23,240 nucleotides of DNA, taken from UHGV virus genome UHGV-0143097; one strand, 5' to 3'. The translations under genes and the position numbers were made by a program. Each line of letters opens with the position of its first letter. The stretch's first letter is position 1. Shown here one piece after another: positions 3,813 to 4,371 of this stretch. Below the pieces are notes generated by a model. The model saw only the letters and a list, made by a program, of their open reading frames with translations, ran no database searches and was not told the origin of the DNA. Source of the DNA: a virus.

Positions 3813-4058
3813 ATGACTTTTGATGAAAAAGAACTTGATAATGCAATTAATAAAATCATCGTAACGTCGCTCTTTTCCTGTCTCAGCGACACTCAGCAGA
3901 AACAGTTCTACGAATCGGCTTTCAACATGATCGAGCGTTGTTGTTTCTGCGATGCCGACGAGTTACCTGAAAAAATCAGGAAACAGTTGGCTGATGCTCT
4001 TCGAGTGCGACTTTCTGACCAATTTTCTGAAATGTGCTCTCCGAATTTGGACAAATAG
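3813..4058 (+). CDS. Hypothetical small acidic protein (81 aa)
   Basis: ORF begins 37 bp after repeat copy 1, with AAGGAAAA upstream of the ATG; no recognisable family. Confidence 0.4.
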   Translation: MTFDEKELDNAINKIIVTSLFSCLSDTQQKQFYESAFNMIERCCFCDADELPEKIRKQLADALRVRLSDQFSEMCSPNLDK

Positions 4059-4251
4059 AAAAAGGCCATTTCCATTCAGGGTCTGATGGAAATACTTCAG
4101 CCTGTTCCAAAGCACGGCGTAAAGAGAACACAACTCCAGCCATAATCTGATGTTTCCCATTGGTCCAGCTATCGCCGCTCTGATCTACAGGGGCGGCTAT
4201 GTCGTATGACCAAACGACTTCACAGTTATTGTTTAAAATCTGGACTTTCAT
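3976..4251 (-). CDS. Hypothetical small protein (about 91 aa)
   Basis: ORF downstream of a leftward promoter-like element; start placed at the Met at 4251 (AGGTG 7 nt upstream). Its 3' end overlaps the convergent ORF 3813-4058 by about 80 nt, so one of the two may be spurious. Confidence 0.3.
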   Translation of the reverse strand: MKVQILNNNCEVVWSYDIAAPVDQSGDSWTNGKHQIMAGVVFSLRRALEQAEVFPSDPEWKWPFSICPNSESTFQKIGQKVALEEHQPTVS

Positions 4252-4371
4252 TTCATACACCTGCTTTAACATGAGTGCCTAGTGGCACAACATGACTCAA
4301 CGAATCATCCTGGACTTCATATGCCCCAGGCGGCTACTTCGTGGGCGTCCTGCCTGTTCGTTGTTTCGCTT

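Follow-up and report, generated by a model that had tools for sequence, protein, structure and literature searches.

The 23,240-nucleotide (nt) virus genome UHGV-0143097 (hereafter the window) carries two small open reading frames (ORFs), ORF-A on the plus strand and ORF-B on the minus strand, which converge and share 83 nt at their 3' ends. Comparison of homologous loci makes it very likely that both are genuine protein-coding genes and that they form an obligate module. The explanation that we prefer, and to which we give as a whole a probability of roughly 0.6, is a co-evolving two-gene cassette, about 440 nt long between the two start codons, whose genes would be expressed in opposite states of the phage, with antisense interference between them and, as a guess, a function in exclusion and its antidote. 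A first-pass annotation of the region had described an acidic plus-strand ORF of 81 amino acids (aa) meeting a minus-strand ORF of about 91 aa over about 80 nt, and had weighed a real antisense-overlapping pair against one gene plus an artefact. This layout was borne out, and homologous loci favour the real pair. Coordinates of all features are collected in Table 1.

Coding status of the two frames

Both frames were open and convergent in all 15 diverged lineages examined, which include E. coli/SfV, Salmonella, Klebsiella, Yersinia and metagenome contigs, and overlapped by 74–176 nt. The distance from ATG to ATG is 439 nt in 7 of 12 lineages and 424–442 nt in the others. Across the cassette of these 12 lineages, only the frames of ORF-A and ORF-B stay open, and the other four frames contain 4–16 stops. 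Five diverged pairs were compared by the Nei-Gojobori method, separately for the overlapping and the non-overlapping parts. Outside the overlap, the proportion of synonymous differences (pS) was 0.5–0.9 and largely saturated in both genes, and that of nonsynonymous differences (pN) was 0.17–0.25 among well-diverged pairs (ORF-A: pS 0.6–0.87, pN about 0.2; ORF-B: pS 0.5–0.9, pN about 0.2). The corresponding ratio of nonsynonymous to synonymous substitution rates (dN/dS) was roughly 0.1–0.25 for both genes where it was computable. Inside the overlap, pS drops to 0.1–0.5 in both frames, as expected from dual coding. In this part dN/dS of ORF-A is about 0.3–0.5 in most pairs and up to 1.9 in two, and that of the ORF-B tail is near 1. 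The length of ORF-B varies between 91 and 126 aa across homologues because its stop codon shifts within the antisense of ORF-A.

The occurrence of both ORFs at diverged loci, together with selection on each outside the overlap, led us to reject the reading as one gene plus an artefact. Disruption of either gene was found in none of 79 near-identical copies on viral contigs, and both ORFs were intact in every diverged lineage examined. A disrupted frame in one ORF with synonymous-only changes in the other, which had been named beforehand as the sign of a spurious member, was seen in no lineage. The copies from the viral-contig scan are all 99–100% identical and thus serve allele counts, not divergence. 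Frameshifted ORF-B entries in the databases (P0035, P0037, P0047 and P0050) are single contigs whose DNA is otherwise near-identical.

Each gene has its own translation start. ORF-A is preceded by the Shine-Dalgarno sequence AAGGA at 3801–3805, 7 nt ahead of its ATG, and ORF-B by AGGTG, 6 nt upstream of the start at 4251. Complete divergent ORF-B homologues without a fused N-terminal extension begin at the equivalent of this codon (MKVQ...). An alternative ATG at 4272 would give an ORF-B of 98 aa with its stop end unchanged at 3976. Within ORF-B, at 4066–4093 on the minus strand, lies an 8-bp inverted repeat, ATTTCCAT ... ATGGAAAT, with GGCCTTTTTCTATTT next on the minus strand, where ORF-A ends; it is weakly terminator-like and has just two G-C pairs.

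Co-inheritance of ORF-A and ORF-B

DNA corresponding to positions 3700–4450 was found in 381 of 5426 complete E. coli genomes at a coverage of at least 80%, and the flanks in about 1900. Homologues of ORF-B with 58–64% identity occur in Salmonella and on enterobacterial contigs, and each of these loci has a convergent partner that is 59–63% identical to ORF-A, even where the gene caller had missed it. A profile search with ORF-A returned members of 56–64% identity in Salmonella, three species of Klebsiella and Yersinia, again with ORF-B on the opposite strand. A full hidden Markov model scan with ORF-B extended the family down to 33–46% identity, including two members fused to an N-terminal extension. 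Five distant ORF-B loci were opened, and all five have a convergent, overlapping, ORF-A-like partner of 76–85 aa; identity to ORF-A in the distant loci is 26–44%. In no lineage examined was ORF-A or ORF-B found without its partner. Such strict co-inheritance suggests that the two proteins may act on each other or on one target. A protein-guided scan of one genome per species returned no locus.

Both proteins are already in the databases as hypothetical proteins, and their sequences are not new. ORF-A lacks annotation in SfV and in the PGAP record examined and is annotated in two newer phage records. To our knowledge, and judging by the searches made, neither an obligate dual-coding convergent module of this kind, nor its place as one of several interchangeable cassettes in the sieB/ymfI slot, nor the structured upstream element common to these cassettes has been described previously.

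In some distant relatives (L018 4001–4579; P0064, P0065 and P0066), the ORF-B domain carries an N-terminal helical extension of 70–90 aa. At its start (MEFKDLP...), this extension is similar to the product of a separate gene of 66 aa that lies immediately downstream of the pair in locus L005 (4572–4772).

Insertion site and alternative cassettes

In comparison with the e14 prophage of E. coli K-12, positions 3700–3781 and 4300–4450 of the window are almost identical, and in place of the sequence between them e14 has a non-homologous cassette of ymfI (+) and ymfJ (−). Other E. coli cassettes within the same flanks consist of an ECs1072-family gene (+) with a 68-aa gene (−), or of one rightward gene, 170 or 171 aa long. 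The site was found to hold at least five alternative cassettes. On the repressor side, close copies of the pair show 26 distinct sequences of roughly eight unrelated types. Homology to the window ends either at 4362–4366, immediately past the predicted transcription start, or at the ORF-B start codon (4253). The smallest shared block, seen in two loci, spans 3738–4280, and with the break at 4253 the common core is about 3738–4253. Diverged copies adjoin unrelated repressors of HTH_3, S24 and unclassified types.

The varied flanks and the unrelated repressors point to a mobile module that belongs to no single immunity region. On these comparisons the site is hypervariable, and the best reading of the pair is a mobile two-gene accessory (moron) cassette. 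As with phage morons, which are accessory genes that sit within phage operons with expression of their own, prophages that are otherwise alike differ in the genes between the conserved flanks; unlike them, ORF-A and ORF-B constitute a two-gene convergent unit, not a single gene with its own promoter and terminator.

The closest parallel in layout is found in e14, where the small ORFs ymfI and ymfJ, at the same site and between the same flanks, also converge, overlap by 63 nt, and have ymfJ as the first gene behind the same promoter, like ORF-B. However, the two pairs have no sequence relationship, and ymfI/ymfJ is an alternative cassette whose products are also of unknown function. Homology of ORF-A and ORF-B to YmfI and YmfJ was rejected, as BLASTP found nothing and hhalign probabilities were below 1%. 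The NCBIfam family of YmfI (NF051477) matches K-12 YmfI only and not the cassette proteins.

Structured element upstream of ORF-A

A conserved element ends 31 nt upstream of the ORF-A start codon. Its complementary arms, S1 (GCCUG with CAGGC) and S2 (ACCAC with GUGGU), interleave in a pseudoknot-like arrangement. Across 14 distinct sequences, pairing is retained in 99.3% of cells, with three pairs changed on both sides. Slid controls gave 16–45% pairing, and shuffles reached the observed value in 0 of 500 cases on four of five measures and in 4 of 500 on the fifth (further pair types). On the ORF-A-sense strand, ten sequences have A-U and four have G-U as the outer S2 pair, which mildly favours this strand if the element acts as RNA. 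Between the element and the gene, a second hairpin involves the Shine-Dalgarno region: among 14 leaders with an ATG about 31–35 nt past the element, 11 have a hairpin of UCCUU... with ...AAGGA whose stems covary, and two further leaders (K-12 ymfI and L112) have a hairpin just upstream of the Shine-Dalgarno sequence. The Shine-Dalgarno hairpin is the predicted minimum-free-energy fold on both strands. Folding energies for the element are ordinary (z −1.7 and −0.9).

The element was found in 153 phage records, including lambda, P22, HK620, Stx phages and phages of Klebsiella and Salmonella. It is also present in Rac, in e14, and a second time in the window ahead of sieB (window about 13553–13606 (+); lambda 34395–34435; P22 29650–29690; Rac, L022 2060–2105). 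Every copy that was opened leads to a rightward ORF with a Shine-Dalgarno sequence, starting 25–35 nt downstream, or about 75 nt in the sieB type. Several of these ORFs lack annotation: one in phage HannyBb that encodes a hydrophobic protein of 106 aa, zinc-ribbon ORFs that are 66 and 76 aa long, and ORFs of 74 and 93 aa.

One idea is that the element forms the 5' leader of a rightward mRNA. This conflicts with the P22 annotation, which places the sieB promoter and RNA start just downstream of the element, and no conserved promoter was found upstream of the element. The hairpin at 3757–3776 was also considered as a terminator and as a promoter spacer, and both were rejected: its stems covary, and the T-run behind it, which the window has but lambda and others do not, is not conserved across homologues. 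An Rfam scan of 3500–4500 gave no match for the cassette or the element, and only STnc100 next door. As judged from conservation and covariation, the element is a real, conserved and structured signal tied to rightward accessory genes. Lambda, P22, Rac and e14 may share it as a means of regulation, and it could mark further accessory genes for discovery.

Promoter and leader of ORF-B

The promoter-like element at 4372–4410 in the first-pass annotation proved real, with 11 of 12 matches to the sigma-70 consensus, and ORF-B had been placed correctly behind it. Two operator-like GGTACATT repeats overlap this strong promoter (4405–4378), and related GTAC dyads occur in the intergenic region between repressor and cro. 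The promoter points leftward directly after the terminator-like hairpin of the repressor, which is the position of lambda pL. The region is near-identical in K-12 e14, where ymfJ follows. In K-12, a multi-omics study found that ymfJ is induced late in the SOS response (log2 about 4–4.8), as are ymfM and intE, and detected the YmfJ protein; its authors attributed the late induction to slow cleavage of the cI-like repressor (PMC11002266). By inference, ORF-B would be an early-left gene, off in the lysogen and on at induction.

The leader between promoter and ORF-B (CGTGGGCGTCCTGCCTGTT with its surroundings, 4300–4365; L014 3860–3920) stands ahead of leftward cassette genes in a wide range of settings. 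In Yersinia prophages two convergent pairs of small genes lie in tandem with this leader between them (in L014, 3336–3569 (+) with 3566–3826 (−), followed by ORF-A/ORF-B), and tandem cassettes are also present in some viral contigs.

Protein properties

In line with the earlier view that neither ORF resembles a recognisable family, scans of both proteins against Pfam, NCBIfam and PADLOC gave no match, and profile searches of PDB sequences had no hit with E below 0.6. Full-length matches were obtained only to PHROG families of unknown function (ORF-A to PHROG 3311, E=1e-55; ORF-B to PHROG 3195, E=4e-65). Both proteins are acidic, and neither is obviously hydrophobic as judged by eye without membrane-segment prediction. 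The AlphaFold2 (AF2) model of ORF-A, with a predicted local distance difference test score (pLDDT) of 77, is a three-helix bundle (helices 5–22, 26–47 and 53–75), which is a fold without specificity, and Foldseek found no match for it in PDB or BFVD below E=1. A CCxC motif between helices 2 and 3 is conserved, except in the most distant members, which have lost it. ORF-B has a conserved core of about residues 1–85 (about 65–85 residues), composed of two predicted strands, then W..D.SG..W..G.H..MA.V, a helix and W.(W/Y)PF, and the tail beyond it varies in length.

Owing to its genomic position, ORF-B was considered as a lambda N-type antiterminator (PF25694), for which no Pfam match was obtained; its N-terminus, MKVQILNNNCEVVW, is not basic. 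The assignment of ORF-A as SieB (PF14163) was rejected, as it has no Pfam match at E<=0.1, is 81 aa long and is modelled as a three-helix bundle; the SieB proteins of Rac and of the window (13666–14247) score 1e-25 to 1e-31 against the same family. The pair lacks the layout of a type II toxin-antitoxin system, since its genes converge and neither Pfam nor PADLOC gave a toxin-antitoxin match. It also differs from type I systems, because both strands are under protein-level purifying selection and neither sequence appears obviously hydrophobic by eye.

Proposed mechanism and comparison with known systems

In the proposed mechanism, the cassette moves among lambda-like prophages with different repressors. 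ORF-B would head the early-left transcript, and with its promoter under repressor control it should be silent in the lysogen and on at SOS induction or infection. ORF-A lies in the slot that is taken by ymfI in e14 and by sieB in lambda, P22 and Rac, with the same conserved element ahead of it. Its expression is therefore probably not dependent on the early-left promoter and would most likely take place in the lysogen. Given the 3' overlap, early-left transcription would necessarily yield antisense RNA to ORF-A: leftward transcripts that cross the shared 83 nt and continue across the remainder of ORF-A would act as antisense, and expression of the two genes would become mutually exclusive, as in an excludon. 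For opposite-state expression with antisense interference, which is derived from the arrangement of promoter, overlap and slot, we see about even odds.

Convergent excludons have been listed from RNA sequencing, among them ymfI-ymfJ and sieB-ydaF (PMC12288877). They are recognised as convergent neighbours with overlapping units, and the coding regions of ORF-A and ORF-B converge with an obligate overlap of this type, conserved in all lineages. As in excludons, the promoters are likely to be under different control. Unlike in excludons, the overlap lies inside both coding sequences and is kept as dual-coding sequence.

A second comparison is offered by the sieB slot. In lambda, P22 and Rac, sieB points rightward against the early-left operon behind the same element, as ORF-A does. 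In lambda, N (−) is transcribed from pL and directly adjoins sieB (+), which converges on it, and in Rac ydaG and ydaF (−) meet sieB (+). N and sieB do not overlap in lambda or in the window, unlike ORF-A and ORF-B. The SieB protein of P22 is made by the prophage and aborts superinfecting phages, and Esc neutralises it (PMC12197685); antisense RNA from the growing phage switches synthesis from SieB to Esc (reviewed in PMC12197685). The sieB/esc/sas system is also present in the P22 annotation. However, the antidote Esc is an in-frame internal product of sieB and not a separate convergent gene as here.

The SieB/Esc precedent favours a reading as effector plus antidote, in which one protein would be a prophage-expressed exclusion or abortive factor and the other an antidote made when the phage grows. 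By this analogy an exclusion/antidote function for ORF-A and ORF-B is put forward only tentatively, and either protein could be the effector. On a bolder version, which we consider rather unlikely, the pair might be an unrecognised two-protein system for exclusion or abortive infection with self-immunity, and the overlap its switch, by which early-left transcription would make the antidote and silence the effector. The same version would include a wider interchangeable set (ymfI/ymfJ, the ECs1072-family gene with the 68-aa ORF, the zinc-ribbon ORFs and sieB), with cassettes bounded by the structured element on the rightward side and the leader on the leftward side, and would make the site a defence hotspot in the lambda-like early-left operon.

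Several observations weigh against the preferred explanation. SieB is a membrane protein of about 160–190 aa, whereas ORF-A is a small soluble acidic protein. Neither protein matched a defence, toxin or antitoxin model, no solved or predicted structure resembling ORF-A was found, and the AF2 model of ORF-B (5 sequences) reached a pLDDT of 44 and was not used. The best promoter candidate for ORF-A is weak (TTCACC, a 16-nt spacer and TATCCT, 8 of 12 matches) and lies inside the element, overlapping the conserved hairpin. No intrinsic terminator was found after ORF-A or ORF-B. In a Klebsiella locus, a further gene is located between repressor and ORF-B, and thus the status of ORF-B as first early-left gene is not universal.

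Among other explanations, a toxin-antitoxin-like or kil-type arrangement survives best, albeit as an unlikely one. ORF-B would then be a host-directed early protein, harmful if leaked, and ORF-A its inhibitor in the lysogen with antisense as a backup. All structural evidence for the preferred explanation applies here as well, including the strict co-inheritance of two genes, and the difference is which of the two would be the effector. Like many protein inhibitors, ORF-A is small, acidic and helical, and ORF-B lies behind a repressed early promoter and, in some loci, beside kil-type genes (kilR in L003). However, toxin or antitoxin families gave no match, convergent genes are not the operon layout of type II systems, and the few frameshifted ORF-B alleles with an intact ORF-A, tolerable for a toxin, have no reverse cases for comparison.

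Less probable still are two functionally unrelated accessory genes whose overlap reflects genome compaction without a regulatory role. Lambdoid early-left regions are full of small unrelated accessory genes, other cassettes at the site hold a single rightward gene only, and the ORF-B tail in the overlap is weakly constrained and variable in length. Yet independent genes should reassort in the manner of the flanking genes, whereas neither of these was found without the other and they co-occur in 15 of 15 lineages, down to about 26–33% protein identity and with near-constant geometry. That there is a single gene, whose codon structure passively keeps the other ORF open, is highly improbable: PGAP and the SfV authors annotated ORF-B only, and its dN/dS is about 1 inside the overlap, but about two thirds of each ORF lies outside the overlap under its own purifying selection, each has its own conserved start codon and Shine-Dalgarno sequence, and the other four frames are closed.

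In lambda-like prophages, the stretch immediately behind the repressor gene is known to carry lysogen-protecting genes such as rexAB and sieB. Here a pair of 'hypothetical' ORFs, one of them missed by the SfV authors and by PGAP, proves to be a strictly co-inherited dual-coding module in this slot. The pair is thus a candidate for a new phage-phage interference or self-immunity system, and a class of function might also be suggested for the long-uncharacterised K-12 genes ymfI and ymfJ.

Genomic context

The cassette lies in an SfV/e14-like lambdoid prophage arm, between a YfdP-like gene and a LexA/S24-type repressor, which is followed by a cro-like gene on the plus strand (Table 1).

Table 1. 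Positions of the cassette, its candidate signals and neighbouring genes in the window
Feature	Position	Strand	Remarks
ORF-A	3813–4058	+	81 aa, acidic; ATG start; PHROG 3311 family; from ORF table and sequence
ORF-B	3976–4251	−	91 aa from ATG 4251; equals SfV orf33; PHROG 3195 family
Dual-coding 3' overlap of ORF-A and ORF-B	3976–4058	both	83 nt
Conserved element with interleaved complementary arms	3745–3781	+	S1 3745–3749/3764–3768; S2 3757–3761/3772–3776
Shine-Dalgarno hairpin	3778–3805	+	UCCUUUUA with UAAAAGGA; 3' arm contains the ORF-A Shine-Dalgarno sequence
Early-left (pL-like) promoter	4378–4405	−	TTGACA 4405–4400, 16-nt spacer, CATAAT 4383–4378
Terminator-like hairpin and T-run	4414–4433	−	directly after the repressor; annotated in SfV as putative rho-independent terminator
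Conserved leader	4252–4365	−	between promoter and ORF-B; contains CGTGGGCGTCCTGCCTGTT; common to other cassettes
Integrase	50–1177	−	
DUF2303 gene	2123–2947	−	
YfdP-like gene	~3013–3375	−	
LexA/S24-type prophage repressor (ymfK/cohE type)	4445–5119	−	
S24/HTH repressor	15492–16208	−	
N antiterminator	14263–14628	−	matches PF25694
SieB	13666–14247	+	PF14163 match
DUF2528 gene	12701–13069	−	

The window contains a second immunity-left region, of the lambda/P22 type, at 12701–16208, so that two lambdoid early-left regions lie about 10 kb apart. Behind the cro-like gene of the first, the sequence changes abruptly (at 5392–5460) to the C-terminal portion of a gene for a phage tail sheath (5416–6132), which suggests a deletion or rearrangement of the early-right operon in the SfV/e14-like element. 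The whole window was not found as one contiguous stretch in any complete E. coli genome.

Adjoining the cassette, positions 3511–3725 (−) match the prophage small RNA family STnc100 (RF02076) with 45.6 bits against a gathering score of 47 (E=1.8e-8). K-12 'ymfH' and a PGAP 'frameshifted hypothetical protein' are annotated over this stretch, and the long ORF at 3013–3693 is probably spurious in its 5' part.

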